Part shown: positions 9,007 to 27,712 of the stretch, piece by piece
How positions within the stretch are numbered: position 1 is the first letter of the stretch
How the letters are laid out: each line of letters opens with the position of its first letter
DNA from: FCB group bacterium
GTDB taxonomy: Bacteria > Zixibacteria > MSB-5A5 > GN15 > JAAZOE01
DNA length: 33,277 nt
Direction: 5' to 3'
NCBI GenBank assembly: GCA_024231695.1
Contig: JAAEQF010000099.1
Location: 1-33,277 of the forward strand
Program-made: the position numbers and the translations under genes
Notes under the pieces: model-generated
What the model was told of the DNA's origin: nothing
Seen by the model: the letters and a program-made list of their open reading frames with translations, nothing else
Database searches by the model: none

Positions 9007-9873
9007 TTAGTCGTCAACTAAAATCAAATCGAAACCGGCGACACAGCTCATCGTGTCGGACGCAGCCACAAGCTTGACTCTTACATCTGTTTTTTCGGGA
9101 ATAGGACCGGCTGGTATTCCATATTCGTACTGCCAATGTGATGAACCAATATTCACTAATCCGACATGACCTTTGACTTGCCATGCACCGTTCGCTCCGT
9201 TATTGGCTCTCATTAACCATTGGAAACTGCCGTCCTCGCCGCCTTTGTTGTCGTTCATCAGGCCGACATATCCCTTGATGAAATATGCGGACTTCCCTGC
9301 TGGCACTGTATAGATCGCCTGTTGCGTCTGGCCCTCGCCGTCTGCAATAAAAATCGCAACAGTGGCCGCACCTTTTATTTCAACCGTGATATCACCCGCG
9401 TTTGTCTTTCCGCTTCCTGCCTCGGAAACAAAAGCTCGAAACATGCGAATGTATTTATTATCAAGATCAACAGCAGTCCCGCCTTTCAGTTCTTTGGTCT
9501 CCGATATTTCTTCCCAGTTTTCATCGAGACCGAAGACGGTAACAGACCTCGCACCTGTCCCCGCTGCGGTATCAGCGGCCTCCGTGGACTGGATGTCCAT
9601 TGACTGCGCGGTTGCCGGATAAAACGCATAGACGCCATCTCCTGCCCATATATCATCGCCAGCGGTTGCCGTTGCGTTATGCCCGAATTTATTCATTGAC
9701 GCATGGCCGGGAATATTTCCTTTGGCAACGTCGAGGTAAAATGCTGGAGAGTTTTTTGCTACTGCTTGATAGTATTTCAGCGAATCCGAATCGCTTTGCC
9801 CGAAGATAAACGGGAGTTGAATCGCTGCCAAAAATGCAATGGCGAAAATTACTAAGTAGTGTTTGGTTTTCAT
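9007..9873 (-). CDS. Secreted protein (N-terminal signal peptide), beta-rich
   Basis: 'MKTKHYLVIFAIAFLAAIQLPFIFGQSDSD' is a typical Sec signal peptide, and the rest is Gly/Val/Ala-rich. Confidence 0.5.
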   Translation of the reverse strand: MKTKHYLVIFAIAFLAAIQLPFIFGQSDSDSLKYYQAVAKNSPAFYLDVAKGNIPGHASMNKFGHNATATAGDDIWAGDGVYAFYPATAQSMDIQSTEAADTAAGTGARSVTVFGLDENWEEISETKELKGGTAVDLDNKYIRMFRAFVSEAGSGKTNAGDITVEIKGAATVAIFIADGEGQTQQAIYTVPAGKSAYFIKGYVGLMNDNKGGEDGSFQWLMRANNGANGAWQVKGHVGLVNIGSSHWQYEYGIPAGPIPEKTDVRVKLVAASDTMSCVAGFDLILVDD

Positions 9874-9891
9874 CGTAAAGCCCTTTCGTTG

Positions 9892-10989
9892 TTATGCTGT
9901 CGGCCAAGAAACTTCTGTTAATTCGATTCTTGCGACCCACCGAACGGTATCGCCGCCAGATGTCGAGTCTTTAACTTGAATCAGGAATGCGTCTAGGTCA
10001 GCCCCGTCGACGGCAACCTGTGCATCAAAATCGGTATCGTCGGTGTCATAGACGGTCGTCACCGTACTTGCGGGAATTGATACCGTACCGCTGTCGTTTT
10101 TGGCGATTCCAGAGATGTTGAAAGCGAATACTTTCCCGACGTTGGCGGTTGTCCCTGTGATGTTGATGTTGAAATTCCAAACGGTATCATTGACAAGCAT
10201 GTTGATTCGCTGCGTTTGCAATAAGAGCAAGTCATGCCAGGATGAATCGCTGTGTGTAATCGACTCGCTTGCAACCAGCACACTTGTCTGTGCGTCGCCT
10301 CTATTTGTAAATGACCTACACGCATGAGCATGCTGGGCATATTTGTCTGCCAGTGAGTTGCGTCCAATTGCAATGCAATAATCACCAGTAGCGGAGCTTC
10401 CGTAGCCGCCAACAACGGCCGAGTAATCACCAGAAATGTCGTTCGACGTACCGCCAATAATGGCCGAAAAATCACCACTTACTTCGTTAAATTCACCACC
10501 AGTAACCCCGGACGAACGGCCCGTGACTGTATTGTCGTTTCCGCCGAGGCAAGAAGATTTCGTGCCAGACACTACGTTGTCGTAACCTCCGAGAACAGTA
10601 GCGTAACTTCCTGACAGCGTCTGCCTAGTGCCAGCCTTAATCACCCCCGTAATCTCTACATTGCCGGAAAAATATCCATCCTTCCACCTGGCCGCATCCG
10701 TGCCGAGGTCGTGAGTGTCCGTCGCAACTGGAGTCAGGTTACCGGTCACTTCTCCCGTTATAATTATGTCGTCAACGTAAAGTGCCGACCATTCATAACT
10801 CGCGGACCCGAGATCATAAGTGTCGTTCATTGTCGGCACATTGTTTGCACCGCCCGTGACAACAACCATCGTTGCAGGATCGAACATTGTGACGATCCAG
10901 TCACGGCATTTCTGCGCGGTAATGCCCTTGCGTGGAAGCTCTGCAAATGCGGTCGTAAGATATGACTGACTGCGAACTGTATCGGCCAT
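9892..10989 (-). CDS. Fibre-like protein with a beta-helix repeat region
   Basis: It carries at least 7 consecutive repeats of approximate form xxGGxxNxVSG(xxS) ('VLGGYDNVVSG', 'CLGGNDNTVTG', 'VTGGEFNEVSG', 'IIGGTSNDISG', 'VVGGYGSSATG'). Confidence 0.5.
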   Translation of the reverse strand: MADTVRSQSYLTTAFAELPRKGITAQKCRDWIVTMFDPATMVVVTGGANNVPTMNDTYDLGSASYEWSALYVDDIIITGEVTGNLTPVATDTHDLGTDAARWKDGYFSGNVEITGVIKAGTRQTLSGSYATVLGGYDNVVSGTKSSCLGGNDNTVTGRSSGVTGGEFNEVSGDFSAIIGGTSNDISGDYSAVVGGYGSSATGDYCIAIGRNSLADKYAQHAHACRSFTNRGDAQTSVLVASESITHSDSSWHDLLLLQTQRINMLVNDTVWNFNINITGTTANVGKVFAFNISGIAKNDSGTVSIPASTVTTVYDTDDTDFDAQVAVDGADLDAFLIQVKDSTSGGDTVRWVARIELTEVSWPTA

Positions 10990-11004
10990 CGGTAAATCCC
11001 TTTC

Positions 11005-11403
11005 TTATAAGTCTTCTGTCGAAGTGCCCAACCACGAGACGCTTGCCGTTTTCGACACTCCGTCAATGATCTTTTTATTGTGGCGAGCAAGTGCGCCTGT
11101 TGTATCGAGGCTCAATGCCATCTGGCCATATCGAGTTTGATTCAGTGCGAGGTCAATTTTATAGTCAAACGATTCAGAAACAGAACCCGCTTTTTCGGCA
11201 GACGCACGAGGTTTGTAAATGGCATAAAAGTGAGCCGCAAGCCATGTTTCGATAACGGCCAATGTCGCTGTTGCCGTTCCTGATTCGCCAAGGATATCCG
11301 TTACCAAAATGTTTGCAGCATCAATAAACGCGTCCAGGTCGTCGCCTGAATCCACGTCAATAATCTTGCCGATTTCGGTTGCGTCTGTTCGTGCCATTTT
11401 CAA
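11005..11403 (-). CDS. Putative head-tail connector / head completion protein
   Basis: A 132-aa protein at the gp6-like position downstream of the capsid genes; the N-terminus resembles connector-family proteins. Confidence 0.4.
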   Translation of the reverse strand: MKMARTDATEIGKIIDVDSGDDLDAFIDAANILVTDILGESGTATATLAVIETWLAAHFYAIYKPRASAEKAGSVSESFDYKIDLALNQTRYGQMALSLDTTGALARHNKKIIDGVSKTASVSWLGTSTEDL

Positions 11404-11412
11404 TACCCTTGT

Positions 11413-11721
11413 TTACTTTTTGCGGGGTCTGCCACGTCTTTTTTTTACGGGAGCTTCCACTTCTGGGATTGCTTCCTGTATTAGTTCTACAACAGGTTCT
11501 TGCGCGTCGTCCTTGACCTCTTCGGCCGATTCGACCGATTCTATTTCTACAATTGGTTCAGATTCTTCGACCACCTCGGCAAAATAACCAGGGAACATTG
11601 AAGTCAGATTGTCCGTTGTGGTGACGACGTCACCTCGCTGGTATACATTGCCAACCCTGTCGCTATAGGACCTGCCCGTCAACTTGAATTGTCTTTCTTT
11701 TTCTGTCATCATGGTCTCCAA
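11413..11721 (-). CDS. Small acidic protein with a C-terminal AT-hook (KKRRGRPRKK)
   Basis: The C-terminus exactly matches the AT-hook core RGRP flanked by basic residues, and the preceding 40 aa are Glu/Val-rich. Confidence 0.55.
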   Translation of the reverse strand: METMMTEKERQFKLTGRSYSDRVGNVYQRGDVVTTTDNLTSMFPGYFAEVVEESEPIVEIESVESAEEVKDDAQEPVVELIQEAIPEVEAPVKKRRGRPRKK

Positions 11722-11735
11722 TTTTGCATATCAAA

Positions 11736-11780
11736 AAGAAGCCGCCGGACGCTGCGAGGCAGGGGAGATCGTCCGGCGGC
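11736..11780 (-). terminator. Intrinsic terminator after the major capsid gene
   Basis: A perfect 11-bp inverted repeat GCCGCCGGACG...CGTCCGGCGGC with an 18-nt loop, followed on the minus-strand RNA by UUCUUUUUGAU. Confidence 0.6.
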
Positions 11781-11789
11781 ATCTGGGGA

Positions 11790-12875
11790 TTATGTGTAAG
11801 TTCCGAGTACGATTCCGGACTTTCCACCAAATTCAGACCGGACGCGTGGAACCTTCAAAGCCATGACCTTGAAGTTCTTTTGCATGCCGCCAAGTGTATC
11901 CCACTGGACGGTCATAAAATCGATGCCGTTGACGACCTGAACAACGTTGGAGGTCGTCTGGACAAGCAACATAGTCTTGGTTGTCATGTGGTCGGCAATA
12001 ATAACATCCTGAACGCTCGAAATCTTTTTAATCCGTTCGAGAAGGGTTCCGTCGCCCTTGGATGTCGAATAATCAGAATCAAGGAACGGCGCCCAACTTG
12101 GTGCGGCGTAAATTACGAACGGGCCGTAATGATTGTCCGCTTGGGCTTTCGTTATCATATCGAGGATTTCAGTAATGGTCGTTTCACCATTCGATCCGGT
12201 TGGCGTCGTCATATTCTTGGTGTTGTTGTCCGTATGGTTTGCCAACCCGTAGACGTTGCCGCCACCGAACTGGTAAGTGCCATAAACACCAAGAACCAAC
12301 TTTTCAACAGTCTCTGCAACTTTGCGACCGGCAAGTTCAATCATGCCGGAATCAATCGGAAGGCCGCCGTTGTTAACCGCGTTGATTTCGCGGATGTTAA
12401 AGTGGAAGTCCTTGTGAGCAATCGGCAGCGGCAGAGTTGTGGTATCGAACTCTTGCCGATCCGCAGCCGTTGATCGTCTGGCATCCATGCTCAGGTCAGC
12501 ATCGCTAATATCCGATGCAGTCTGTGAAATTAACACTGGTGTCCCGAGTGCGTTTTGGATGTTGTAAACCAATCCGCGAGACTCCAGATCGGATACGACC
12601 CTCAGCCTTTCCTGTGCCGCCTGAATGACGATATTGTCAATCGATTTCCAAGCATCGTAAGTCAGTGTCGCGGCATTGTGTGTCGGAACTGTTTCAACGT
12701 TGAAAGTTCCTTCCGTTGAATTGAACGTCGAGATACGGTTAATGTACGACTGACCGCCGGGAATGTCCATGTACGGCCGCAACGAAAGCGGGTCCATGTT
12801 ATTCGCGGCGAGCAAGTCGGCAACCGCACAGTTGCCTTGCGGCTGTCCGTTAATAATGAAGTCTGTTTCCATCAT
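11790..12875 (-). CDS. Major capsid protein (lambda gpE-like family)
   Basis: A 361-aa protein with lambda-like gene order (protease/scaffold, decoration, capsid). The C-terminal segment '...IDFMTVQWDTLGGMQKNFKVMALKVPRV' resembles E-type capsid proteins. A strong terminator lies immediately downstream. Confidence 0.75.
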   Translation of the reverse strand: MMETDFIINGQPQGNCAVADLLAANNMDPLSLRPYMDIPGGQSYINRISTFNSTEGTFNVETVPTHNAATLTYDAWKSIDNIVIQAAQERLRVVSDLESRGLVYNIQNALGTPVLISQTASDISDADLSMDARRSTAADRQEFDTTTLPLPIAHKDFHFNIREINAVNNGGLPIDSGMIELAGRKVAETVEKLVLGVYGTYQFGGGNVYGLANHTDNNTKNMTTPTGSNGETTITEILDMITKAQADNHYGPFVIYAAPSWAPFLDSDYSTSKGDGTLLERIKKISSVQDVIIADHMTTKTMLLVQTTSNVVQVVNGIDFMTVQWDTLGGMQKNFKVMALKVPRVRSEFGGKSGIVLGTYT

Positions 12876-12925
12876 AAAAGTCCTTTGTGTTCGAGAAAAA
12901 TTCTCTTCCCTGTCCTGGGTTTTTG

Positions 12926-13852
12926 TTAAGCGACGATGCCTTCGATGAAGGAAACAGCCGATGTGGTTGTAACTGCCTCGGAAGCTTCCAAGACAACGGT
13001 GGTCGGATCGGTGCGGAGCAACTCGACAGACAGGTCATCAAGTGCGACCTGGTTGTCTGCGTGTGACACGGATGCGGTTGCAGCAACGTCAACAGTAAGG
13101 TCTGCTGTCGTCGTGTCGATCGCGGTGGAAGGAAGTGCAAAGACAACTGCCGTTGCAGTACCGTCAACACCAAATGCGGTAGTACCGCCAGCAACCATCG
13201 TGCCAGAAGCACCAACGGTTCGGATTGTGATCTCGGCCTCGATCAGACCGGTATCATTGTCCGTGATGTTGAGAGCTGCCGTTGCGATAATGGTCGTGCC
13301 ACCGAGTCGCAACGTCAATGCGACGGTGTCCGTGCTGTTCGCTTTAATGACATTCACGCGGGCTTTGATTCGCAGCTTGTCGCCAGCTTTTAGGAATCCT
13401 TTCGGAATGTCATAGTCAACATCAAACGCGGCAATTGTCGTCCAGGTGTGCATGGTCGTCGAAGATGCAACGTTCTGAAAAAGCAACTCAGCCGCCTGGT
13501 CCGCAACGATCAAAGTACCGTCGCCACCGGAAATAAGGTTCGATCCAATAACGGCCGTTTGATTCAGGCCGAGGACCGATTGCACTCGGTTACCTGGCGG
13601 GATGTACGCAAGTGACACAATGTCGTCGGCTGCGTATGCAGTGTCAACATTATCGCCTTGCAGTGAATCTTCACGGGCAAACAAACGCATGTGAGCGCCG
13701 CCTGTGGAGCTATGTGCTTGCACTTTTCCGGCTGAAGTCTTTTCGCAAAGATAGCCGGGCGAGATCGCAGCAACGGCAAGGAGCTCTTCCGTCCTGCTGT
13801 TATTATCGAGGTCAATTGTGTTATAACTACTCATTTTTATGCCTCCGGGCAA
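12926..13852 (-). CDS. Putative head decoration protein (gpD-like N-terminus) with a Thr/Ala/Val-rich beta C-terminal extension
   Basis: It sits between the scaffold and capsid genes. The N-terminal ~110 aa are Ala/Gly-rich like the decoration-protein D family. Confidence 0.45.
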   Translation of the reverse strand: MPGGIKMSSYNTIDLDNNSRTEELLAVAAISPGYLCEKTSAGKVQAHSSTGGAHMRLFAREDSLQGDNVDTAYAADDIVSLAYIPPGNRVQSVLGLNQTAVIGSNLISGGDGTLIVADQAAELLFQNVASSTTMHTWTTIAAFDVDYDIPKGFLKAGDKLRIKARVNVIKANSTDTVALTLRLGGTTIIATAALNITDNDTGLIEAEITIRTVGASGTMVAGGTTAFGVDGTATAVVFALPSTAIDTTTADLTVDVAATASVSHADNQVALDDLSVELLRTDPTTVVLEASEAVTTTSAVSFIEGIVA

Positions 13853-13890
13853 AGTATATTATTGGTTAAAAAAAGTGTCGCGACGTTGGC

Positions 13891-15252
13891 CTACGCCTTC
13901 GGCTTGAGTGTCGTCGGAATCCCGAGCGTTCTCGGTTGCGATCCGGACTGGTTGCCAGTTGGAGCCGTTGCGCTGCCGTAGTAATTCGGCTTGGCTGCCT
14001 TTACTGGTTCTGCGTTGGTGGCAAAGTCAGCCATCGTCTGCAAAACGCCATCTTCAAGAGTTGCAAGGTATTCGGCCGATGCCTTATTGCCTTTGTTCGC
14101 AACAATCGCGTCAATCATCGACTGCCGATTTGCCTCATTTGCGGCAATGCCGTTGCGAATAACAGCTTGCATTTTCGGATCCGCTTTTGCAAGCAATTCC
14201 TCGAATGTCGGCTGCGATTCATTTGATACCGGCAGCTCTTCTTTTTGCACTGGCGGTACTGCTGGTGGCGTCTCTTTGTTGGAAACGACCTCTGTTGCGA
14301 CGGGTGTGAATTTCTTCAGTTGACCGTCTTCCATGTTCGTGAGGAAATCTCGATCTTCCTCTGTCCAGGCAGTCGCTTCATTGGCGATTAAGGCCGAGAC
14401 AATTTCGGTTTTTTCGGTTGCTTTTCCCATTTGTTCTTGTTCCTTTTCTTGGGTAACATTATCGACCATATCGCCGAGAGGCCGGTATTCAACGACCTTT
14501 TCAACTTCAGTTGATTCGCCTTTTAGTGTGGCATCATTTTCGCCGATGGTATAATTCATCTTGAAATAATCGCCGTCCACTTCGTAAATTAAGTAGTCGT
14601 CGAAAACCTCACTGATCCAAGCACGTTCGCCGTAACGATCAAAAACGGATTGCCTCAACTTGTCGCGGATGCCGTCATGTGAAAGCTGGTTTGCCTGCAT
14701 GAGGCCAGCACCATCTGCAATCGAGCAACTGCCTTTTTGATCCGGCAAGATTGCCAAGTGATCCGGGCGGAAGTTCGTTGCGACGTGGCTGTATTTCTTG
14801 CCGTTCCATGTTCCGGGGGATTGTAGTGCGTCCGTAAAAAGACCAGTTGATACCTCCATGAGCTTATTGCTGTTGACCGCAAGTAAGACGCGATCATCGA
14901 CTGCTTCAAGCTTTTCAGGATCGAGCCAAGCCTCTGCGCGAAGCTTGCCCGCTTTCTTGTCGTACTTGGTGTTTAGAATGACGCCGACCTGCTGCGTCTC
15001 GATTATTTCTTTCGAGCAAGCAGACACACCTAATCCGTTTTTCGTTGGGTGATAAACGACAATTGGCTTGGCATCCCATGACTGTGGCGTCTTCTTTAAT
15101 TCAGACGGAGAGTAGTACAAAGGACCGTTCGATCCATTGTGTACACCCTCGGTAATCATAACCATAGGCACTACTAAATACGGCTTGCCGTCAAGCGTAT
15201 CGTGTCGCACTTTTTGCGTACTTGCGTTGAGCGAAATTCTGCAAAATAACAT
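13891..15252 (-). CDS. Putative prohead protease/scaffold fusion (DUF2213-like N-domain, Ala/Glu-rich C-terminal half)
   Basis: The N-terminal ~200 aa ('GKPYLVVPMVMITEGVHNGSNGPLYYSPSEL...WDAKPIVVYHP') resemble a phage head-gene family. The C-terminal ~200 aa are charged, low-complexity and scaffold-like. Its position between MuF and the decoration/capsid genes fits. Confidence 0.45.
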   Translation of the reverse strand: MLFCRISLNASTQKVRHDTLDGKPYLVVPMVMITEGVHNGSNGPLYYSPSELKKTPQSWDAKPIVVYHPTKNGLGVSACSKEIIETQQVGVILNTKYDKKAGKLRAEAWLDPEKLEAVDDRVLLAVNSNKLMEVSTGLFTDALQSPGTWNGKKYSHVATNFRPDHLAILPDQKGSCSIADGAGLMQANQLSHDGIRDKLRQSVFDRYGERAWISEVFDDYLIYEVDGDYFKMNYTIGENDATLKGESTEVEKVVEYRPLGDMVDNVTQEKEQEQMGKATEKTEIVSALIANEATAWTEEDRDFLTNMEDGQLKKFTPVATEVVSNKETPPAVPPVQKEELPVSNESQPTFEELLAKADPKMQAVIRNGIAANEANRQSMIDAIVANKGNKASAEYLATLEDGVLQTMADFATNAEPVKAAKPNYYGSATAPTGNQSGSQPRTLGIPTTLKPKA

Positions 15253-15314
15253 AAAGCCTCTTCTCCGTATTTGTCAAATTACGTTTTTTTCAGGTTTTTG
15301 TAAATACGCGCGGG

Positions 15315-15512
15315 TTATTTTCTCAATAATAAACGGTTACGCTGCCACCTTCGCAATATGCGTCGCCCGGAGTAATGCCTTGCGATCTTTGCCAATGCGC
15401 CTTTCTCAAATCGCATTCCGACCGCGAGCTTGCCCGCCTTTTGCTTCGACTCGATCAACATTGCAACCTTCGCGCCGCCAATCGTTAACTCGAGTCTTTC
15501 ACTAAATCGCAT
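15315..15512 (-). CDS. Small basic hypothetical protein (65 aa)
   Basis: ATG with an AAGGA RBS at 6-nt spacing; preceded by a 9-bp inverted-repeat hairpin. Confidence 0.4.
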   Translation of the reverse strand: MRFSERLELTIGGAKVAMLIESKQKAGKLAVGMRFEKGALAKIARHYSGRRILRRWQRNRLLLRK

Positions 15513-15797
15513 ATCCGTCCTTGTGTATTAAAAGCCGCCGACTTTCACTTTCACTGTCGCAACATGACGGACCAGAGCGTGTCGGCGGCTGCCGTGATGG
15601 TAAACCTATCCACGGATTCATTTATGCCGCTCGTCGCCATCAAGTTGTATTGTCATGTCAACCATTCCCAAACCACGATTGACATAGCTCCCGTTGCAAC
15701 GGCAATAACAATTACAATTCCCATTGCAACTGTGATTAAACAGCCTTTTATTACTTCGTCAAGTGGTCGCATGTCTGGCATGTCCCTAACCTCCATG

Positions 15798-15965
15798 TCA
15801 CCTTCTTGTTTTCCACTGACCGATGAATACCCACCAAATGGCGTTGAATGTTACCAGTGCGACCAACCCTACGCCAGCACCGCAACTTTGCAAGAAGTCT
15901 ATCCACCAATCCAATCCCTTTTTCTCTGGAGGGTCAATCCAATTCCCTTCTTTGTCGTAAGGCAT
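15798..15965 (-). CDS. Small membrane protein (C-terminal transmembrane helix); holin-like candidate
   Basis: Internal ATG at 15965 with a GGGAGGG RBS, 1 nt after the upstream TAA. The protein begins 'MPYDKEGNWIDPPEKKGLDWWIDFLQSCGAGVGLVALVTFNAIWWVFIGQWKTRR'. Confidence 0.45.
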   Translation of the reverse strand: MPYDKEGNWIDPPEKKGLDWWIDFLQSCGAGVGLVALVTFNAIWWVFIGQWKTRR

Positions 15966-15966
15966 G

Positions 15967-16188
15967 TTACCCTCCCGCCGCGTTGTTAAAAGTAAACCAC
16001 GCCCATGCAGCCGCGGCGCCAATAGCAGCCATAATGCCATACTTTCCAAAGTTCAACGCAAATAAAATAACTCTACCTGCTTCCGGGCCGAAAATTTCAG
16101 CCTTGTCTTTCTTTTGGACCTGCGTTGATTCCGTTTCATGGTCCGACCTATAAGGATCGAACGTTGCACGGTATTCAGGTTCAATCAT
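15967..16188 (-). CDS. Small membrane protein (C-terminal transmembrane helix)
   Basis: ATG at 16188 overlaps the upstream stop (ATGA). The protein contains '...GRVILFALNFGKYGIMAAIGAAAAWAWFTF'. Confidence 0.45.
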   Translation of the reverse strand: MIEPEYRATFDPYRSDHETESTQVQKKDKAEIFGPEAGRVILFALNFGKYGIMAAIGAAAAWAWFTFNNAAGG

Positions 16189-16586
16189 GTCTTCACCCTT
16201 TGGATTGCTGTTTGTAACCCCTGTATACCGACTTGAGTTGCATCGTGTTTGCGGTCGCACTTGTCGGCAATGTTCGTTGTTATCGTGTCAATCACCGCTA
16301 TAAAATCTTTTCGGTCTTGCTCGCGAGCCGTTGCATTTTCGGCCCTCTCTATCCTTGCCACTTCACGATCTTCTTTTGCCGATTTATTAAGCTGGGGAAT
16401 ATGATAAAAGAAAGCGTAAAGCGTCAACGCAGCAAAACAACCGAAAGAGCCGTATTGAATTATCGGCCCGAAAGCAGCGGAATCAATCGCTTGCAACGGA
16501 GCGGCAACCGGCTGCGACTGCGCTACCATGTACGAAACAATGCCCGATGCCGACCAGCTAATTCCTAAAATTGATTCTTTCAACAC
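16185..16586 (-). CDS. Membrane protein with one transmembrane helix and a charged coiled-coil C-terminus (holin/antiholin/spanin-like candidate)
   Basis: GTG start with an AGGAG RBS. The transmembrane segment is 'GPIIQYGSFGCFAALTLYAFFY', followed by 'KEDREVARIERAENATAREQDRKD'. Confidence 0.45.
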   Translation of the reverse strand: MLKESILGISWSASGIVSYMVAQSQPVAAPLQAIDSAAFGPIIQYGSFGCFAALTLYAFFYHIPQLNKSAKEDREVARIERAENATAREQDRKDFIAVIDTITTNIADKCDRKHDATQVGIQGLQTAIQRVKT

Positions 16587-16623
16587 GATTCCATTCTCCT
16601 GTCCCTCAAGGGGCTGTTATCAC

Positions 16624-17454
16624 CTAAAAAATAGGCTTTGGGGGTTCCATCCAAGTTGGTGTAATTACCGTTCTTTGCGCCCACGCCCCGAAACTTCTAA
16701 TGCCGGACGAACAGAAACTTTCGGAATCATGTCCGTATCCGTTATCACCCCAATCACCCCACGAATTAAGATACTTGACGTACCACTTGCGATTTTCGTA
16801 AACGAGTTTCATGCCGACAATAGCGTGCATAGATCGGGCATACGAAACAACGAACCCGCGAAGTAATGCAACTGCCAACCCGTCGAAAGATTGCACGTCG
16901 AACCATTCATCGGCCCGCAAAAATCCGGCGGTTTCCTGCCAGTCTTTCGGGAATCCGTCTCGCCATGCGTTGGCTTCCATGAAGTGCTTTAGGTTCGGGT
17001 TCGCTTTATTCTCTTTCGTCGGCGTCGGTAATGCTCCAACTTCTTTAAGCTGGTTGATGTTGTCGTACATATTCGAGCCGTTATCGCGTGAAACGATTTG
17101 CTCGTAGACTGAATTTGGAGAAAGCTGGATTGCTTTTTTCATGCCGAACGCTTTGTTCCAAGTGATCTCCTGGCATGTCGTCGAACTATTTGACGCGCAC
17201 GAATTATAACCGTTTTGGCTTTTCACCGGCCCCGCGAATTGCTCAAGGCCGACGTGTTCGCCGATGTGGTCGCCCCATTCAGAACGGGGTATCCATGTCT
17301 CGGCTGCTGGTTTGAAAACGTCTTCAAAGACAGGTAGAATCCCGCCAACCCTGCGACGCCCTTTGTCGTCGTATCCAGTTCCTTGATTCAAGCATCCTGT
17401 TTTGCGACCAGGAGGTGGCGTGGTTACGTTTAGAAATGAAATAGGCACGATCAC
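16624..17454 (-). CDS. Papain-like (C1 family-like) cysteine peptidase
   Basis: 'QNGYNSC' has Gln and the catalytic Cys 6 residues apart, as in papain Q19/C25. 'HAIVGM' matches the His box and 'LNSWGDWGDNGYG' matches the Asn-Ser-Trp-Gly...Trp-Gly..Gly-Tyr box. There is no signal peptide. The start overlaps the upstream stop (ATGA). Confidence 0.6.
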   Translation of the reverse strand: MIVPISFLNVTTPPPGRKTGCLNQGTGYDDKGRRRVGGILPVFEDVFKPAAETWIPRSEWGDHIGEHVGLEQFAGPVKSQNGYNSCASNSSTTCQEITWNKAFGMKKAIQLSPNSVYEQIVSRDNGSNMYDNINQLKEVGALPTPTKENKANPNLKHFMEANAWRDGFPKDWQETAGFLRADEWFDVQSFDGLAVALLRGFVVSYARSMHAIVGMKLVYENRKWYVKYLNSWGDWGDNGYGHDSESFCSSGIRSFGAWAQRTVITPTWMEPPKPIF

Positions 17455-18152
17455 CCTCCCTTTCTTTTGATAAGCGACAATGTAGCCTCTGCCGTCAGGG
17501 GAAGTTCTCCCTTGAACAAGAGCTTGTTTGTCTTGAAATCCGTTAATATCAACGCGGGAAGTTTAACGTTGTCGTCGTCGCGTGAAGGGTCGCCATCGAG
17601 TATTTCTGTAAACGGATCGCACGATTTTTGCGACGGGTCCATTATCCATAATTCGTGATCCTCTATTGCATTCGCCGAGCGAATCGCCGCTATCTGCTGG
17701 GCAAGTGCCGGAGTCTGATCCTCTGTTTCTCGAATCAAAACTATATTGCGCTTGCCCGGTTGCGGCAAAGGGTCAGGGGTCGGTGTCGGGTCTGGATTTG
17801 GATAAGGCGTCGGAATTGGCGGGACAGGACCGTCTTCTGCATTGTCGAAATCAAAGACAAACGTCTTTACGCCGTCAGACGTCTTTGATAAGAGGATGAT
17901 CCAGACGCGGCATGTCTCGCGGCTTGCAAAGATTATTTCGTTCCCGCACCGATGAAAGCAGTTGCGAGATGCAACAGGAAAATAAACCACATCATGCTCG
18001 GCCGGTGCATTGACGATTTGGAAGACGGCTAAATTGCCGGATCGCGTGACGTTCGGCCCTGTGACAGAAGCATCGGCCCCCGACGCACTGGCAACCATCG
18101 TTACCAGTGCAATAAGTGCTATCGGGAATAGCTTTTTAGGCCATGCCATCAT
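17451..18152 (-). CDS. Secreted protein with a Pro/Thr-rich linker (PIPTPYPNPDPTPTPDPLPQP) separating two domains
   Basis: The start was set at the ATG at 18152, which overlaps the upstream TGA (ATGA). The signal peptide reads 'MMAWPKKLFPIALIALVTMVASASGADA'. Confidence 0.5.
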   Translation of the reverse strand: MMAWPKKLFPIALIALVTMVASASGADASVTGPNVTRSGNLAVFQIVNAPAEHDVVYFPVASRNCFHRCGNEIIFASRETCRVWIILLSKTSDGVKTFVFDFDNAEDGPVPPIPTPYPNPDPTPTPDPLPQPGKRNIVLIRETEDQTPALAQQIAAIRSANAIEDHELWIMDPSQKSCDPFTEILDGDPSRDDDNVKLPALILTDFKTNKLLFKGELPLTAEATLSLIKRKGG

Positions 18153-18664
18153 GCACCGCCTCTCGCTTGCCGCCGCTGTCGCCATGACTTGATAAGCGAG
18201 ATCACTTCGCGAACGGCGCCGATGATTGCAAAGATCGTGACAGGATCAATACCGACAACCAGTGCAGTGTCGCCATCAATTGCACCGACAACCGGCTTGT
18301 AATCATCGCCACTATTCGAGAAGTCCGCTATGTCGAACAAGCGATCGTAAACGTCGTCGCTTTCGACCATCGCGGTCAAAAGAGCGGCCGCCTTGTCGTC
18401 GATTTCGGTAGGCGTGAACGCAGCCAACTGTCCACCGCCCGCAGCAAGCGTTGCCAGCCATTCTCGCACGGCGGCTTTGTCGTCGAGATCGGGCAGGTCC
18501 ATCAATGACCAAAGATCAGTGAAATCAACCTCCTTGATAACTGCCCATAGATCGGGCAGGTCGAAAAGCGATTGAAGATTAAGCGACTTCACTTCTTTCA
18601 ACATTCGCAAGACTTGTAGCGGCTTCCAATCCCTGATACCGCTCACATTTAATTCTTCTGACAT
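18149..18664 (-). CDS. Acidic hypothetical protein with an internal (L/M)DLPDL repeat
   Basis: 'SLFDLPDLWAVIKEVDFTDLWSLMDLPDLDD'. It is the first gene after MuF. Confidence 0.4.
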   Translation of the reverse strand: MSEELNVSGIRDWKPLQVLRMLKEVKSLNLQSLFDLPDLWAVIKEVDFTDLWSLMDLPDLDDKAAVREWLATLAAGGGQLAAFTPTEIDDKAAALLTAMVESDDVYDRLFDIADFSNSGDDYKPVVGAIDGDTALVVGIDPVTIFAIIGAVREVISLIKSWRQRRQARGGA

Positions 18665-18762
18665 TTTTTATACTCCCAAAATTACGACGATCAAAAGCCG
18701 GATCGCCTTCGGCCTTCTATTCGATATTTTGCCAACTTGCTAAAAAAACGCAATACGCGCCT

Positions 18763-20058
18763 TTACTTTTTTGGCTGTAATGTCACTACATCAAATGAAC
18801 CAGAGAGAATTTGACGCAAGCATTTTGCTTTTAATTTACGCTCGCCACCGCTGTAAACCTGCCCGTTTACTGTGATTTTTGGATTCTCCCTGTATAAGTA
18901 ATCAACCATTTTTTTCATCGAGCTATTGGTAGTAATCACGCCATGCCGAAATTCTATCTCTTCGGTCGATCCTCCCATTTGCACAGTTAGGATATAGCTG
19001 CGATCATCAACATTTGCGTTTTCCGTTGGCCGTTTTTTTGCGACTTTTACATCGGCGCCAACCCATTGTGTATCCGCAATCGCTTCCTTTTTGGATTTCC
19101 CGGGCCGCTCGGCTCGTATTGATTTGGATATTGCCGAGTCGATTTCTTTCTTCGTTGTCTTCTGCCCTTTTCGCTTGTCGTCCGGGTAAGTTGGCAAAAA
19201 ATTGCATCGGCAATTTGGATGTCTTGGTATCAGCCCCCTTGCCTCTTTTACCGTCATTACAACGCCTTCAAGAGGCTGGCAAAGAGGACACACACGATCA
19301 TCCTGAGCATTAGAAATTTCCGCGAGCACCTCAATGTCGTCGATATCCTGCGCCTCAAATGAATCAAGCTGTCCTTCGGCGTGCGCGTGAATAATTTCCG
19401 TTCTGGCCATCGCTAAAGCCCGCTTGCGTTCAATGGATTCAATCTGACTAGTGATCCTTTTCGCAACTTCTCGCGGCCCGTCGCCATGTGCAATTGCGGC
19501 TGATAGTTCGCGGGAGATTGTCTGCGACATTGCGTCCGTTATGCCTTGCAGTTGATCGAAAGCCCGGGTTGAAATCAGCTTTATTTTCGACACGGGAACA
19601 CGGGCATTGAATGCACCTGAAAGAAATTCTTCTGCCGTGCCATCGTAGAAAGACAGGTTGCCGAGACCTGCCCTCTTTGCCGCCAGATACGAATTGACAG
19701 CACCTTTGCGATATGCGGATTCAATATAACCAGAAGTCCAGAAGTCAGGAGCCGATACTGGCAGGCCACCAGGGCGGACGCTAAGAATTTCATCGTTCAT
19801 TGCCTCTCGCATCCATGCCTTGAAGTTCGCAACCTTTGCTTCGTCCGTCTCGAATCGCCAGCGGCTATTACCTGTCAAGCCTTCTGTGTTTAACCCAAAT
19901 GATACAGGGTCTTTTAATCCGAAAACATCATCCCGGACGATCAGATCATTGACACGCTTGCGAAGTTTACGAAACCGCCGCTTGACTTCAGCAACAAAAT
20001 TCCGCCGCAGTGTCAACGTTCGAGTTGGATCGACTTTGAATGGGTTAACCATCTTCAC
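18763..20058 (-). CDS. Head morphogenesis protein (Mu F / SPP1 gp7 family) with a ~150-aa C-terminal extension
   Basis: '...ARTEIIHAHAEGQLDSF...DRVCPLCQPLEGVVMTVKEARGLIPRHPNCRCNF' carries the HPNCRC hallmark of the Phage_Mu_F domain. It sits immediately after the portal gene. Confidence 0.75.
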   Translation of the reverse strand: MKMVNPFKVDPTRTLTLRRNFVAEVKRRFRKLRKRVNDLIVRDDVFGLKDPVSFGLNTEGLTGNSRWRFETDEAKVANFKAWMREAMNDEILSVRPGGLPVSAPDFWTSGYIESAYRKGAVNSYLAAKRAGLGNLSFYDGTAEEFLSGAFNARVPVSKIKLISTRAFDQLQGITDAMSQTISRELSAAIAHGDGPREVAKRITSQIESIERKRALAMARTEIIHAHAEGQLDSFEAQDIDDIEVLAEISNAQDDRVCPLCQPLEGVVMTVKEARGLIPRHPNCRCNFLPTYPDDKRKGQKTTKKEIDSAISKSIRAERPGKSKKEAIADTQWVGADVKVAKKRPTENANVDDRSYILTVQMGGSTEEIEFRHGVITTNSSMKKMVDYLYRENPKITVNGQVYSGGERKLKAKCLRQILSGSFDVVTLQPKK

Positions 20059-21475
20059 CCTCGGCTATGCCGTAATCATCGCCCTCGGTATCTTCGATGA
20101 TCGCATTGTCAACCTTTTCGATGATTGCCTCCGCTTCTTCAGAACTGTAGCCCATAACCTTAGTCAAGAAGTCCATGCGGTCCATAATGTTCTCGGCACC
20201 GCCCTTGACGTATTCGACCATCATTTTAACAAGCTTAACTCCTCGCTCTGCGATTGCGTCGGGCGTGTCTTCGTTCATGTCCGGCCACGTTACCACATAC
20301 TTTTCCGGTTCGGGCAATATGCCAAATGCAATGAAGCGATCAATCACTGGACGAATTACCATCGGCGCGAGATATTTATTTTGACGATAGGCAAGTGTGC
20401 CGTTGAAATTCTTTTCATCTTGGCTCGACGCGAGCTCGCCCGCCTCGTTACCCGCAAATATCCGCAATGGAATGCCGCAGGTAATCGCAAGTGCTTTCAA
20501 CTGCGTCTCGAATTGATCTTTAGGTGATACCACTTGCGGAGAGATCGAACTTGCTTTGACGTTGCGAAGTGCGAGCGTCCTTTGCAGGTCGTTCGTGTAG
20601 TTGAGAATTTCCTCTTTGAGTGCTTCTTTTTCAGCAGTCGTTAATTCGTCGGTGTCATTCATTTCAAGGAACACACCCGGGAAAGCCCCCTTCCAATACA
20701 TCTCGGCCGATCCGCCTAGCGTCTTGCGAAGGTCCAGCAGGCGATTAAAGCCGGATTCCATTCTCGGCGTTCCAAATGTCTCACTTGTGTGTCGATTGTC
20801 GGCAATGTGAATACAACGCGACCAATGCACCTTGAGCACCTTTACCTTTGGGTTAGCATTAACGCTAGCCGATGATTGACCTGGCTTGAAAAATTCTATT
20901 TCATAAAGCGTCGGCTGTCCAAATCTCGGGCTAGTTGCATCGTCGTTATATTCAAGAATCTTCGCTTGAGTCTGGTCGAACGTGCGGAGGTAAAGAAGAT
21001 TGTGTTCTGCATCCCCCTCTTTCATGCCATCTTCGTTGATCCCATCGACCGGCTGGCCTATGTCTTTGCCGTCGTCAATGCCAAGTAGCAATACGCCATA
21101 ATTCGCGATACCTGAAAGCCCGTCGATCCTTGCGAGATAATGCCAGATGTTTTTTTCGTTCACCAAGTCAAGAACAGCAGTCTCAAATTCCGTCGCGTCA
21201 CCTTCCGCATTTTCCTCAACTGAAGGATCAACCTGCCAGCACTTTTCGGGAAAGATATTTACAACACGGGCGCCGATACCTTCGCGTTTGTACATCTCGC
21301 GATACATCGTATCCGTAATCTCTTCGGGATAATGACAAGACGTGTTTAAGTTGCGATTGTCATCGTAGACGCTGTTCATTAGTCTAGCAAGCGACGCTCT
21401 GGATGCTATGTATTCATTGAGCACAAGCGGGTCGACATTGGTCGTTGGTTTCGGTGCTACCTTTTTTTTAGCCAC
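20045..21475 (-). CDS. Portal protein (DUF1073-like) with an acidic C-terminal tail
   Basis: A 476-aa protein with no P-loop, located immediately before MuF. GTG start with an AGGAG RBS. The C-terminus reads 'EDTEGDDYGIAEGEDG'. Confidence 0.6.
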   Translation of the reverse strand: MAKKKVAPKPTTNVDPLVLNEYIASRASLARLMNSVYDDNRNLNTSCHYPEEITDTMYREMYKREGIGARVVNIFPEKCWQVDPSVEENAEGDATEFETAVLDLVNEKNIWHYLARIDGLSGIANYGVLLLGIDDGKDIGQPVDGINEDGMKEGDAEHNLLYLRTFDQTQAKILEYNDDATSPRFGQPTLYEIEFFKPGQSSASVNANPKVKVLKVHWSRCIHIADNRHTSETFGTPRMESGFNRLLDLRKTLGGSAEMYWKGAFPGVFLEMNDTDELTTAEKEALKEEILNYTNDLQRTLALRNVKASSISPQVVSPKDQFETQLKALAITCGIPLRIFAGNEAGELASSQDEKNFNGTLAYRQNKYLAPMVIRPVIDRFIAFGILPEPEKYVVTWPDMNEDTPDAIAERGVKLVKMMVEYVKGGAENIMDRMDFLTKVMGYSSEEAEAIIEKVDNAIIEDTEGDDYGIAEGEDG

Positions 21476-21524
21476 GGCAGGGCTCCTAGAAACGGCTGTC
21501 CGTCGATGTTAACGGATACCCGCG

Positions 21525-21553
21525 ATTTTACGCATGGATTGCTTTTTTGTCCA
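21525..21553 (-). promoter_or_regulatory. Candidate sigma70-type promoter upstream of the portal gene (TGGACA-17 nt-TAAAAT on the minus strand)
   Basis: Read directly from the sequence: -35 at 21553-21548 and -10 at 21530-21525, about 45 nt before the portal RBS. Confidence 0.3.
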
Positions 21554-21573
21554 TACGCGCCGAATAGAGAGGC

Positions 21574-21795
21574 TTATTTTCGGTTAGATTTGCAGTAGAT
21601 TTCGCCGTCGTGCTTTAGAAATTCAAGAACCTCGTACCGTTTGAGGGTTACGTTGTAAGCAAAATAAGTCATGCCGTCGAACGTTGAATCAAGAGCGTAT
21701 GTGCAATGTCTTTGCGTTTCAATATCCATCATCTTAACGCTTGGCTGCGACGGATCGAGCTTGTAATCACTGACGGCCATTTTCCGATCTTCCAT
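21574..21795 (-). CDS. Hypothetical protein (73 aa)
   Basis: ORF in the unidirectional minus-strand array. Confidence 0.35.
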   Translation of the reverse strand: MEDRKMAVSDYKLDPSQPSVKMMDIETQRHCTYALDSTFDGMTYFAYNVTLKRYEVLEFLKHDGEIYCKSNRK

Positions 21796-21901
21796 GTTTA
21801 CTTGATCCGTCCTGTCTAATCAAAAAGGGTTAATTGCCTTGGCTTGTCACGTTCTTTTTCAATCCGCTTTTTGGCGATGTTCACTGCGTAGGACTCCGCG
21901 T

Positions 21902-22228
21902 TCACCTGGTTTCATTGCTTTTGATTTTCTGAAGTATTGCATCAAGTGCTTCAGTTCCCATTTCTACACTGGCTACGGCTGCTTCAAACACGCCGCAACA
22001 CATTACTATACCGGCCGAATCTTCGGATGTCATGTCTTCCTGTGTCATTTCCTGGTAAATGCCGTGCGATATGGCGTGAAGGTGCTTACTAATGGTAGTT
22101 AACGCTTCGATCTGTAATTGCCGTCTATCATTCATTTTGGCTTCTCCTTTCTTAATTATACGTCGCCTTTCGGCCTTCCTTTGACAATAGATGCTATTTC
22201 CTGACAGTTTTCCTCTGGCAATTGGCAC
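21902..22228 (-). CDS. Hypothetical protein (a likely shorter product starts at the internal MNDRRQ...)
   Basis: ORF in the array. Confidence 0.35.
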   Translation of the reverse strand: MPIARGKLSGNSIYCQRKAERRRIIKKGEAKMNDRRQLQIEALTTISKHLHAISHGIYQEMTQEDMTSEDSAGIVMCCGVFEAAVASVEMGTEALDAILQKIKSNETR

Positions 22229-23575: not shown

Positions 23576-24195
23576 GTTTCGTCCATATCGGGGGACCAGT
23601 ACATTTCTATAGTTCCAGTTGGGCTGACGTAGCCAAGGAATGCCTCGTAATTAATGGCGTTGGAAGCGATTTGCACGAATTCGACTGGGTCTTTGAAGTA
23701 GTATCGCCCAAAGCTCACGTAGATATCCAAGTCCCTGTACGCAGGCTCAGATGATTCGACAGGTCCTTGCGGTTCGCCGAGACGAACAACCACGGTATCG
23801 TTGCTTGCCATGCTTGGGCCACTACATGGAAACCACTCGTAAGTCTCCCTCACGAAGCACCGCTCCGGCTCGGTGTCGAGGATGTGGTTGAAGTAATTCT
23901 GAGATGCTTCACTGAACCTGTTGAACGGCTTACTGTTATTAATGAACGCCTTATCAATAATCCTTCTCAGTTCAGGGGTAATATAATCAGGGTTCTCTAC
24001 GCGGACTTTATCGGCCATCTGGTAGCCACCGTTTTCATTCATGATGTACCACTGATACGGCTTCCCGTCGTCTCTTCTTCCACATAAAGTGCCAAGCATC
24101 CAATTGACGTCATCGCCGTCAATCCATTCAATAGGCTTGTTCCAGTGCTCGCCCATGTTCGGTACGATATGCTCGTCGGTAATGTTAATTTTCAT
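23551..24195 (-). CDS. Hypothetical protein (214 aa)
   Basis: ORF in the array. Confidence 0.4.
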   Translation of the reverse strand: MKINITDEHIVPNMGEHWNKPIEWIDGDDVNWMLGTLCGRRDDGKPYQWYIMNENGGYQMADKVRVENPDYITPELRRIIDKAFINNSKPFNRFSEASQNYFNHILDTEPERCFVRETYEWFPCSGPSMASNDTVVVRLGEPQGPVESSEPAYRDLDIYVSFGRYYFKDPVEFVQIASNAINYEAFLGYVSPTGTIEMYWSPDMDETWKVRVKI

Positions 24196-24207
24196 TTTTC
24201 GATCTCC

Positions 24208-24450
24208 TTAAAAAAGCATTAACTGTTTGTCTTTTTCTGGTTCATCTACTACCGGCTCCCACGGGTCACCCGGCTTGCGTAGAATCATTTTAACCGCACC
24301 TGGAAAGCAGTCATATACACACGACATATCGCTCGCGAGTTCACAAGGTCCGCAACCGCTACCACTGCCGGTTGGGCCTTCTTGTGCGATTAGCTTTTGA
24401 CCTTTGTGGATTATTGTGTCACCGGGTTTCATTGGTTCGTTCATTATCAC
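24208..24450 (-). CDS. Small Cys-rich hypothetical protein (80 aa)
   Basis: ORF in the array. Confidence 0.35.
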   Translation of the reverse strand: MIMNEPMKPGDTIIHKGQKLIAQEGPTGSGSGCGPCELASDMSCVYDCFPGAVKMILRKPGDPWEPVVDEPEKDKQLMLF

Positions 24451-24493
24451 ATCCCCTTTGGTGGTTCAACTTTCGGCATTGGACAATTGACTT

Positions 24494-24637
24494 CTATGTA
24501 CGGCAGGTTGCCTCCGTCGCTTGGATGCCGCAGCGAGGCCAGTTGAATGATTCGGGCAGCCCGTGTGTCTTTAATGCGCCACCGACAAAATCAACGAGCA
24601 CACCATCCATGTCGAGTAAAATTTGATTTATTGTCAT
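24494..24637 (-). pseudogene. Truncated remnant of a HAD-superfamily 5'(3')-deoxyribonucleotidase-like gene (47 codons)
   Basis: Hand translation gives MTINQILLDMDGVLVDFVGGALKTHGLPESFNWPRCGIQATEATCRT*. The 'LLDMDGVLVDF' segment matches HAD motif I (DxDGV) at the nucleotidase N-terminus. The ORF stops after 47 aa where a full enzyme has ~170-200 aa. Its start overlaps the upstream stop (ATGA). Confidence 0.4.
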
Positions 24638-27274: not shown

Positions 27275-27275
27275 G

Positions 27276-27629: not shown

Positions 27630-27712
27630 GATTCTTTCTCCTTTTAAATTCAGCGACGACGCCGGATAAACTCAACTAAACCCGACGCCGCCGCTTCTCA
27701 CGGTTTTTTTCT

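Follow-up and report, generated by a model that had tools for sequence, protein, structure and literature searches.

PlyC is built from a catalytic subunit, PlyCA, and a wall-binding subunit, PlyCB. It is described as a two-gene phage lysin, alongside modular endolysins with papain-fold CHAP, NlpC/P60 and Amidase_5 domains, and methanogen viruses have the pseudomurein endoisopeptidases PeiW and PeiP, which are cysteine peptidases used as lysins (PMC10318531). In this study, we analyzed a phage gene block that joins a papain-like peptidase to an exported partner protein. The block lies in what we call the window, the entire 33,277-bp contig held at NCBI under a metagenome-assembled genome (MAG) labeled 'FCB group bacterium', and consists of seven closely spaced minus-strand open reading frames (ORFs) between a MuF gene and a DUF2213 protease/scaffold gene. 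We show that the partner and peptidase genes are translationally coupled, co-occur almost without exception and are fused in several phages, and that a family of 133-residue membrane proteins, or other unrelated small membrane proteins, adjoin the pair. Sequence features establish that the module proteins other than the protease are predicted to be membrane-bound or exported, and that the protease would work outside the cytoplasm at least in its fused forms. Our best explanation, which we put forward tentatively, is that the block is a mobile, late-expressed, envelope-directed cassette, most likely an unconventional lysis or egress module built on a protease and not on a muralytic endolysin. 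The seven ORFs are, in the direction of transcription:

18149 to 18664, minus strand: acidic protein of 171 amino acids (pI 4.3) that contains a DLPDL/DLW repeat and ends in a hydrophobic helix (peak of hydropathy at residues 133-151) and a basic tail.
17451 to 18185, minus strand: exported partner of 244 amino acids with a signal peptide, an Ig-like beta domain, a Pro-rich linker and a CXXC-less thioredoxin-fold domain of ~100 amino acids, here called spC; likely start at 18152, in an ATGA overlap with the upstream stop.
16624 to 17454, minus strand: divergent papain-family (C1A-like) cysteine peptidase of 276 amino acids, assigned by profile and fold; likely start a GTG at 17448.
16185 to 16586, minus strand: membrane protein of 133 amino acids with a hydrophobic segment, then a charged coiled-coil tail of ~70 amino acids and a Cys near the end; its homologues lie downstream of the peptidase.
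15967 to 16188, minus strand: ORF of 73 amino acids with a C-terminal hydrophobic segment (hydropathy 1.58, residues 40-58); open back to 16260, with an ATG at 16188 that overlaps the upstream stop; codon score +0.26 bits/codon.
15798 to 15965, minus strand: ORF of 55 amino acids with a C-terminal transmembrane segment (hydropathy 1.98, residues 30-48); open back to 16049; coding score positive in the called frame alone.
15653 to 15796, minus strand: transmembrane ORF of 47 amino acids (hydropathy 2.63; coding score +0.20), beyond the end of the block as it was first described.

Neighboring ORFs are joined by ATGA or GTGA start-stop overlaps or by 1-nt spacing, the single exception being a 37-nt gap 3' of the peptidase gene. 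Codon usage gives each of the seven a positive score in its called frame and a negative one in both alternatives, and the plus-strand shadow ORFs of the block score negative. The GC content of the block (0.47-0.535) shows no difference from the rest of the window, and a hydropathy scan found the membrane and exported proteins of the window to form a cluster here and in no other part of it. A scan of 13800-21600 gave terminator-like sites not above shuffled expectation and a modest excess of promoter-like sites (14 versus 8.2 +/- 2.6 expected), none of which convincingly marks a block boundary; the only boundary signal was a weak hairpin between the MuF and acidic genes. A preliminary description of this DNA had read it as a six-gene, translationally coupled block between MuF and scaffold/protease genes. 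The ORFs, their coupling and their codon usage agree with that reading, with the amendments that the 47-residue ORF brings the count to seven and that one junction is a gap. Its acidic repeat protein and signal-peptide protein are both confirmed, the former by its pI and repeat and the latter by its N-terminal signal segment, and its C1-like peptidase is borne out by a family profile, by the predicted fold and by conserved Gln, Cys, His, Asn and Trp residues. The three membrane proteins that it listed have become four small membrane ORFs, of which the 133-residue one alone has detectable homologues.

As judged from profile and model, the 276-residue protein belongs with the papain-family (C1A-like) cysteine peptidases; its catalytic residues are all present, and it would hydrolyze peptide bonds by a thiol mechanism. 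Its likely GTG start is preceded by the Shine-Dalgarno sequence AAGGGAGGG. Nothing in the protein matched Pfam (E<=0.1) or PHROGs, and both PF00112, at its gathering score, and the I29 propeptide were without a match. Searched as a single sequence against the PDB it returned only Blo t 1, a mite C1 allergen (E 0.42); a profile of seven homologues returned cathepsin K (1.4e-5) and xylellain (1.8e-5), with both catalytic halves aligned. In the profile match Gln78 and Cys84 fall on Gln19 and Cys25 of cathepsin K (Q-x5-C), and in the second stretch of the hidden Markov model (HMM) 'HAI...NSWGDWGDNGY' of the peptidase is aligned to 'HAV...NSWGESWGNKGY' of cathepsin K. Cys84 and His208 occur in all of 22 homologues, and Gln78, Asn228 and Trp230 in nearly all; no Cys other than Cys84 is invariant, and the family thus has no conserved disulfide cysteines. 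An AlphaFold2 (AF2) model (predicted local distance difference test (pLDDT) 76, predicted template modeling score 0.80) matched only C1 peptidases among the Foldseek PDB matches listed, with procathepsin K the best (2.8e-9) and xylellain at template modeling (TM) scores of 0.59/0.60. The N-terminus of the peptidase is not hydrophobic, that is, it has no signal peptide, and it carries a conserved extension of ~55 amino acids with the motifs phi-x-D-V-D-F and G-C-x-P-R.

Of the proteins of this region, the peptidase also shows the highest conservation when the window is compared with its closest relative. It is 85% identical to its orthologue in L001 (collected loci are numbered with L, individual family proteins with P), compared with 77% for MuF, 69% for the partner and 66% each for the portal and DUF2213 proteins (range of the others 60-77%). 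Inteins sit exactly at the catalytic Cys of the peptidase in L018 (L018:6031-7059), L023 (L023:1933-2958) and the proteins P0015 and P0055. Those of L018 and L023 are of the LAGLIDADG type, 342-343 amino acids long and 45% identical to one another, and their excision restores the family motif G-S-C; those of P0015 and P0055 are mini-inteins with canonical C...HN/C junctions. Split matches, in proteins of ~390-650 amino acids, were seen for about 8 of the 150 top-ranking family representatives. The inteins were called from their junction motifs, from the family alignment restored after excision and from a weak LAGLIDADG match, and by sequence the peptidase intein had no match in the PDB. Inteins tend to settle in genes under strong constraint. 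Their insertion at the catalytic Cys, together with the high conservation, are signs that the enzyme matters to the phage, and the repeated insertions provide a natural marker of its importance.

The partner has a signal-like hydrophobic segment at residues 19-37. In its AF2 model an Ig-like sandwich is predicted at low confidence and the spC domain at a pLDDT of ~80, with the order beta-alpha-beta-alpha-beta-beta-alpha (DSSP). Thioredoxins were the best Foldseek matches of the spC model (target-normalized TM ~0.6, E 6e-3 to 3e-2), and a sequence profile of spC gave no significant match in the PDB. The domain keeps a nearly invariant Pro, in 'LPAL', preceding strand 3. It has no CXXC motif and no conserved Cys, and an invariant Glu (R-E-S/T) stands at the corresponding position. 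Partner proteins share a common plan: they begin with a signal peptide or membrane anchor, many continue with a beta-rich domain that varies between them, and a Pro-rich linker then leads to spC. Every full-length partner inspected had a signal peptide or transmembrane anchor. Two observations concern thioredoxins proper near the module: just downstream of the peptidase in L027 (L027:3233-4066) lies a membrane-anchored true thioredoxin (G-C-P-G-C), and 2-3 thioredoxin-family Pfam matches occur among the module neighbors overall.

With an HMM of the last ~100 residues of the 244-residue protein, we found spC in 37 of 39 loci, encoded immediately 5' of the peptidase or joined with it in one chain, the denominator being those of our 53 unique loci that are fused or have enough upstream sequence. 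At least eight proteins are natural fusions (P0006, P0021, P0025, P0029, P0030, P0034, P0042 and P0147), in which a signal peptide or canonical lipobox leads into a Pro-rich linker, then spC and then the whole of the peptidase with its N-terminal motif. The layout of the fusions shows that the enzyme and the thioredoxin-fold domain probably work together, and because the fusions carry a signal peptide or lipobox, the fused enzyme would be placed outside the cytoplasm. About half of the thioredoxin-fold partners end in Gly-Gly (window 17454-17462; L001, L007, L014, L015, L019, L021, L023 and L025). In the window the Gly-Gly codons double as the Shine-Dalgarno sequence AAGGGAGGG for the peptidase, whereas elsewhere they read GGC GGG, GGC GGT or GGT GGA and are not Shine-Dalgarno-like, so that this role only partly explains the conserved end. 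A ubiquitin-like reading of the Gly-Gly end was rejected, the fold being thioredoxin-like and not beta-grasp and the protein being exported. We likewise set aside a programmed frameshift from partner to peptidase in the window (no slippery site was seen by eye; the peptidase lies in frame -1, and a prfB-like +1 shift gives the wrong frame) and a hitch-hiking of the peptidase through the Tat pathway (no consistent twin-arginine motif was seen by eye in the partner signal peptides).

The peptidase family is common among uncultured phages and comprises 218 clusters (50% identity) at E<=1e-30 and 677 at E<=1e-10 (HMMER, 1.84 billion representatives). Loci were collected from IMG/VR (17), GTDB genomes (7) and JGI metagenomes (47); the wider peptidase alignment A2 proved too divergent to use as a query for the genome-contig search. 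Probing 50,697 deposited phage genomes with three family members gave no detectable match, PHROGs holds no member of the family, and no deposited relatives of window 11000-22000 were found. Since the family is without a match in deposited phages and PHROGs, annotation pipelines would leave phages that carry the module without a recognized lysis gene.

The module occurs in several genomic settings. In the window, in L001-L005 and in L013, a Mu-like locus, it separates the portal/MuF genes from the head protease gene. L010, L014, L020 and L021 have it 2-3 kb beyond the capsid gene, with connector genes before it and tail genes after it. In L007, L009, L023 and L051 it immediately precedes TerL or portal, and in L006, L008 and L058 it follows RusA, with no recognized structural gene beside it there. 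In L006-L010, L014, L020, L021, L023, L051 and L058 it is not adjacent to MuF. The head genes of L021 are homologous to those of the window (MuF 39%, DUF2213 44% and major capsid protein 35% identity), and in L021 MuF and DUF2213 are adjacent, with the protease pair 3 kb past the capsid gene. The block of the window is therefore a real insertion relative to the L021 lineage, and its link to MuF is incidental. The spC-peptidase pair moves between genomes, co-oriented with late structural genes. Lysis cassettes are located between the nin region and terminase in lambda and P22, before the head genes in Mu, and between head-completion and tail genes in P2; the settings of our module upstream of TerL or portal, after RusA and between the head-tail connectors and the tail genes match these lysis-gene sites.

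Small membrane proteins accompany the pair. Homologues of the 133-residue protein lie downstream of the peptidase, mostly as the next gene, in eight other loci (seven distinct sequences: L001-5, L008, L009, L020, L023, L024/L058 and L025), and share one conserved hydrophobic segment, 60-80 charged coiled-coil residues and usually a Cys near the end. In this outline, and in architecture only, the protein resembles a holin or i-spanin; it had sub-threshold matches only, and no family, in Pfam, PHROGs and the PDB. More broadly, over the 53 loci a transmembrane-like segment occurs in 79 of the 213 small same-strand ORFs that lie no more than 1.5 kb from the module and in 41 of the 304 that lie >=3 kb away (odds ratio 3.8, p = 8e-10). 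The three smallest ORFs of the block (73, 55 and 47 amino acids) have no detectable relatives; the first is absent from the relative with the 85%-identical peptidase, and the second is not conserved in L002. DNA similarity to the closest relative is ~69% from the portal to the end of the peptidase gene, is lost over the stretch of small ORFs and resumes before DUF2213. The block therefore consists of a conserved core and a replaceable tail of small membrane genes. No lipobox was seen in the small block ORFs on reading the translations by eye, and no lipobox predictor was run.

The acidic protein contains a conserved T-x-(I/L)-DDK motif and is an accessory component in a subset of loci. Its homologues precede the module in L001-5, L020, L023, L077 and L078, and in L046 the homologue follows the peptidase. 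Against Pfam, PHROGs and the PDB it had only sub-threshold matches.

We searched for a conventional lysis enzyme around the module and found none. Among 140 neighboring ORFs from 18 loci, 26 Pfam families were recognized, including RusA, sigma-70, capsid, protease, terminase and thioredoxin, and none of them is muralytic. A 52-kb composite of the L021 type was stitched from the overlapping loci L021, L032, L036, L037 and L039, and its 36 ORFs of >=100 amino acids, scanned as concatenated pseudo-proteins, contained no muralytic enzyme; matches there were to DNA polymerase A, UvrD helicase, UDG, thymidine-hypermodification enzymes, glycosyl- and methyltransferases and a tail terminator. A PDB scan of the qualifying ORFs of L052, L054 and L055 gave no muralytic enzyme, and no muralytic family was found in the window. 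With all genomes incomplete, this evidence is no more than suggestive. Beyond these loci, BFVD holds proteins of uncultured phages annotated 'Peptidase C1A', and two BFVD matches combine a papain-like fold that matches the peptidase model with a 'Peptidoglycan binding-like' or 'N-acetylmuramidase' annotation. By architecture, these proteins may be taken as precedent for papain-like domains in lysins.

How such a cassette might work can be outlined. Late in infection, the thioredoxin-fold partner would be exported and kept in the envelope by its signal anchor, a lipid anchor or the Ig-like domain, with the Pro-rich segment as a spacer. Unfused protease would build up in the cytoplasm and pass through lesions made by the small membrane proteins, and fused versions would be exported by Sec. 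The protease would dock on the thioredoxin-fold domain through its conserved N-terminal segment (phi-x-D-V-D-F, G-C-x-P-R) and would then cut an envelope protein or the peptide links of the wall, letting the progeny leave. Protease-based lysis might be suited to hosts in which protein layers, for instance S-layers, sheaths or protein tethers, hold the envelope together. The stronger form of this proposal, a new class of phage lysis in which a papain-family protease carried on, or fused to, an exported thioredoxin-fold subunit and released by unrelated small membrane proteins replaces the endolysin, is possible, and we regard it as doubtful.

Several points weigh against a lytic role. The unfused protease has no signal peptide, and its passage across the membrane is part of the proposal only. 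No block component matched known holin, spanin or endolysin families, and a narrow literature search found no phage lysin of the C1 family; a review of papain-like enzymes gives phage lysins of the CHAP, NlpC/P60 and amidase types only. The window is incomplete, and a conventional lysis cassette could lie off the contig. The best-covered relative is likewise incomplete, with ~54 kb recovered from a contig of >=70 kb, short of its terminase-proximal part, and ORFs of <100 amino acids and fast-evolving lysins could escape Pfam. The enrichment of transmembrane ORFs near the module rests on crude ORF calls and a hydropathy threshold. MAG bin labels of the module loci are inconsistent (Chloroflexota, Pirellulaceae, Thermotogae and FCB group) and point to no single host or envelope type. 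We also know of no precedent for lysis genes between MuF and a scaffold gene.

An exported partner, and fused forms tethered by lipid or membrane anchors, would also suit a protease that remodels the envelope without lysis, trimming or destroying a host surface protein such as a receptor, S-layer or adhesin. Such a moron-like function, analogous to that of receptor-blocking lipoproteins, would block superinfection or the trapping of progeny on debris. The mobility of the module between genomic positions fits this idea, as does the variation of the partner's N-terminal Ig-like domain between loci, which suggests diversifying target binding, but the unfused protease lacks an export signal, and the membrane would have to be damaged before it could get to the envelope. 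Even where two phages have 85%-identical peptidases, their downstream small genes have been exchanged, as might be expected of remodeling; the enzyme itself, however, is more conserved than the portal and scaffold proteins and bears active-site inteins, which is atypical of dispensable morons. The block shows no sign of a promoter or terminator of its own and no GC shift, and the module is retained in all three related head-module lineages examined. Taken together, we consider remodeling without lysis unlikely.

Still less probable is a morphogenetic role, in which the C1-like enzyme processes a virion or assembly protein and its neighbors are assembly accessories. In most loci the module is part of the structural operon or borders on it, in the same orientation and closely spaced, but a dedicated prohead protease is already there (DUF2213 in the window; S49, ClpP or S78 elsewhere), the partner is Sec-exported and the fusions are exported proteins or lipoproteins whereas tailed-phage assembly is cytoplasmic, and L006, L008 and L058 have the module after RusA with no recognized structural gene beside it. 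Least probable, and very improbable in our judgment, are virion-delivered effectors, which would travel in the capsid as MuF-associated cargo and enter the next host by injection: the module does lie between portal/MuF and scaffold/protease in the window, L001-5 and L013, prohead core proteins of T4 are encoded at the portal-scaffold position, and a MuF tail of ~120 residues is unexplained, yet MuF adjacency is not conserved (most marker-bearing loci have the module elsewhere, and in L021 MuF adjoins DUF2213), MuF has no toxin domain, and the predicted signal peptide of the partner, the several membrane proteins of the block and the fusions speak against it, packaging in a cytoplasmic prohead being incompatible with the fused members because they have a signal peptide or lipobox.

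The preliminary description had put forward such MuF-linked effectors, and that claim is not supported, given at least four different module positions, a MuF without a toxin domain, and an exported partner and fusions. Its second suggestion, an unconventional lysis cassette misplaced among head genes, is the one favored here, through the clustering of transmembrane ORFs, the module positions and the lack of a muralytic enzyme nearby, all of which bear on it indirectly. A comparison of related phages at the junction, which it had proposed, was informative: with MuF and DUF2213 adjacent and the module elsewhere in L021, the block is an insertion relative to that lineage, and the relatives do not present these genes as an ordinary structural part of the head module. 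The junction was said to be normally tight, which holds only in part; it is tight in L021. In the Brevundimonas phage MaInes, a reverse-strand endonuclease VII gene stands between a TerL-adjacent head gene of 500 amino acids, suggested to be the portal by its position only, and the next head gene; MaInes and StAshley are the closest cultured relatives by capsid protein (35% identity). The C-terminal extension of MuF, put at ~150 residues, is indeed an unexplained tail, with a length of ~120 residues. The two genes that bound the block are:

18763 to 20058, minus strand: MuF-like head morphogenesis gene of 431 amino acids (PF04233, 1.5e-14, residues 179-287; phrog_758, 1.2e-32, residues 7-308); upstream boundary, outside the cassette.
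13891 to 15252, minus strand: DUF2213 prohead protease/scaffold-like gene (PF09979, 1.3e-7; phrog_760, 7.2e-35; phrog_530 'head maturation protease', 1.5e-8); downstream boundary.

The MuF tail, beyond residue 308 of 431, had no Pfam, PHROG or PDB domain match, and no toxin domain was found in MuF. In L001 (L001:2365-5001; also L002-L005) MuF is 879 amino acids long and holds two inteins in the CxxC...CxC motif of the MuF domain (Intein_splicing 3.6e-10, PT-HINT 2e-5); the window MuF is without inteins, unlike the MuF of this relative with the 85%-identical peptidase. Just upstream of DUF2213, a basic small ORF of 65 amino acids (15315-15512, minus strand) appears by eye to be conserved with L005:5771-5956 (61 amino acids); it is not part of the stretch of variable small genes and could be a head-module gene.

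The likely genes of the window are all on the minus strand, bar two ORFs close to the left end. From high to low coordinates they run from replication and recombination genes (DnaD/DnaC-like loaders, a methyltransferase, RusA and DUF5131) through small unknown ORFs to the portal (PF06381), MuF, the block, DUF2213, decoration and major capsid proteins, and connector and tail genes. No terminase, tape measure, distal tail gene or recognizable lysis gene was found in the window, and since it holds no terminase, tape measure or recognizable lysis gene, the genome is incomplete. The DnaC/DnaD-like loaders and RusA of the window, and sigma-70 in related loci, point to a bacterial host. Three further proteins of the window may be mentioned. 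A 288-residue protein (9007-9873, minus strand; phrog_8198, function unknown) has a strong N-terminal signal-peptide-like segment amid structural genes and is a second candidate exported protein of the late operon. Downstream of the capsid gene, an acidic protein of 365 amino acids (9892-10989, minus strand) has a beta-roll repeat (Pfam LbR_Ice_bind, 3.2e-8) and may be a fibre or decoration protein. The DUF5131 protein (25430-26746, minus strand) has 438 amino acids against a 243-position profile that is matched end to end, indicating insertions of ~150-190 amino acids that include a Cys-rich, zinc-ribbon-like stretch; no intein junctions were seen in these insertions.

Among the other loci, L025 (CAZAQY010000013.1, a Pirellulaceae MAG) has the partner, the peptidase and a protein of the 133-residue family ending R-P-C-L-L-E at 9218-11916, at the end of a 67.5-kb contig. 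By translations read by eye, this core lies between a protease-capsid fusion-like ORF and tail genes, and L025 would be a prophage with a planctomycete host if the remaining 48 kb are chromosomal. Transfer RNA (tRNA) scans gave a single tRNA-like call, inside the putative tape-measure ORF of L025. Near the module in L054 (L054:452-946) is a PDB match to the anti-Thoeris/anti-CRISPR Tad2/AcrIIA7 family (1.2e-13). At ~24000-27800 and 46500-49400 the L021-type composite encodes a 5-hydroxymethyldeoxyuridine (5-hmdU) DNA kinase and an amino acid:DNA transferase, and large glycosyltransferase/methyltransferase proteins directly after the tail genes.

If the protease is the lytic enzyme, tailed-phage lysis would not be limited to peptidoglycan hydrolases, and the module would offer a handle on the exit of phages from poorly studied phyla (Chloroflexota, Planctomycetota, Thermotogae and the FCB group, by MAG label). 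The obligate association of a C1 peptidase with a thioredoxin-fold domain that is redox-dead can itself be tested as a protein-protein module. The C1A fold and family are already known, as are automatic 'Peptidase C1A' labels on some uncultured-phage proteins. In a narrow literature search, we did not find described a module with an obligate, often fused, exported thioredoxin-fold partner that lacks CXXC, recurrent membrane neighbors and lysis-cassette-like positions.

Set against known systems, the peptidase itself is closest to papain family C1A (cathepsins K, L and B; xylellain, 3ois). It is predicted to share their two-lobe fold (Foldseek E 2.8e-9 to 1e-7, TM 0.5-0.6), and its Q-x5-C and H...N-S-W-G-x-W-G-x-x-G-Y motifs align to cathepsin K over both halves. 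It has a short N-terminal extension and no mature start, and its best structural matches are zymogens and xylellain. It differs from the family in having ~17% identity and no PF00112 match even at E 0.1, in lacking a signal peptide, the I29 propeptide and the family disulfides, and in being encoded by a phage, beside an obligate exported thioredoxin-fold partner. MuF-fused polymorphic toxins of temperate phages, in which the toxin is the C-terminal domain of MuF, were reportedly described by Jamet and colleagues in 2017. As in those, a MuF gene adjoins accessory genes of unknown function, but the window MuF is without a toxin domain, its neighbors are exported or membrane proteins encoded by genes of their own, and the arrangement varies among loci.

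PeiW and PeiP form a separate cysteine-peptidase family, transglutaminase-like, in MEROPS C71. Their hosts are archaeal, whereas a bacterial host is indicated for the window; what they would share with the block, if our proposal is right, is the use by a virus of a thiol peptidase, and not a glycosidase or amidase, as the wall-opening enzyme. The C1-like hydrolase of the block belongs to no Pfam or PHROG lysin family, which sets it apart from a holin-endolysin-spanin cassette; as in such a cassette, small membrane ORFs, here four, follow the enzyme gene. Compared with PlyC and the papain-fold endolysins, the catalytic domain here is C1-like, not CHAP or NlpC/P60, and the partner is a Sec-exported thioredoxin-fold protein and not a known wall-binding domain; we infer its binding to the enzyme and propose the lytic role. 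What the block nonetheless shares with these lysins is that its catalytic subunit is of the papain-like clan, that targeting would fall to a second subunit with a gene of its own, sometimes joined to the first in one chain, and that small membrane proteins are neighbors.

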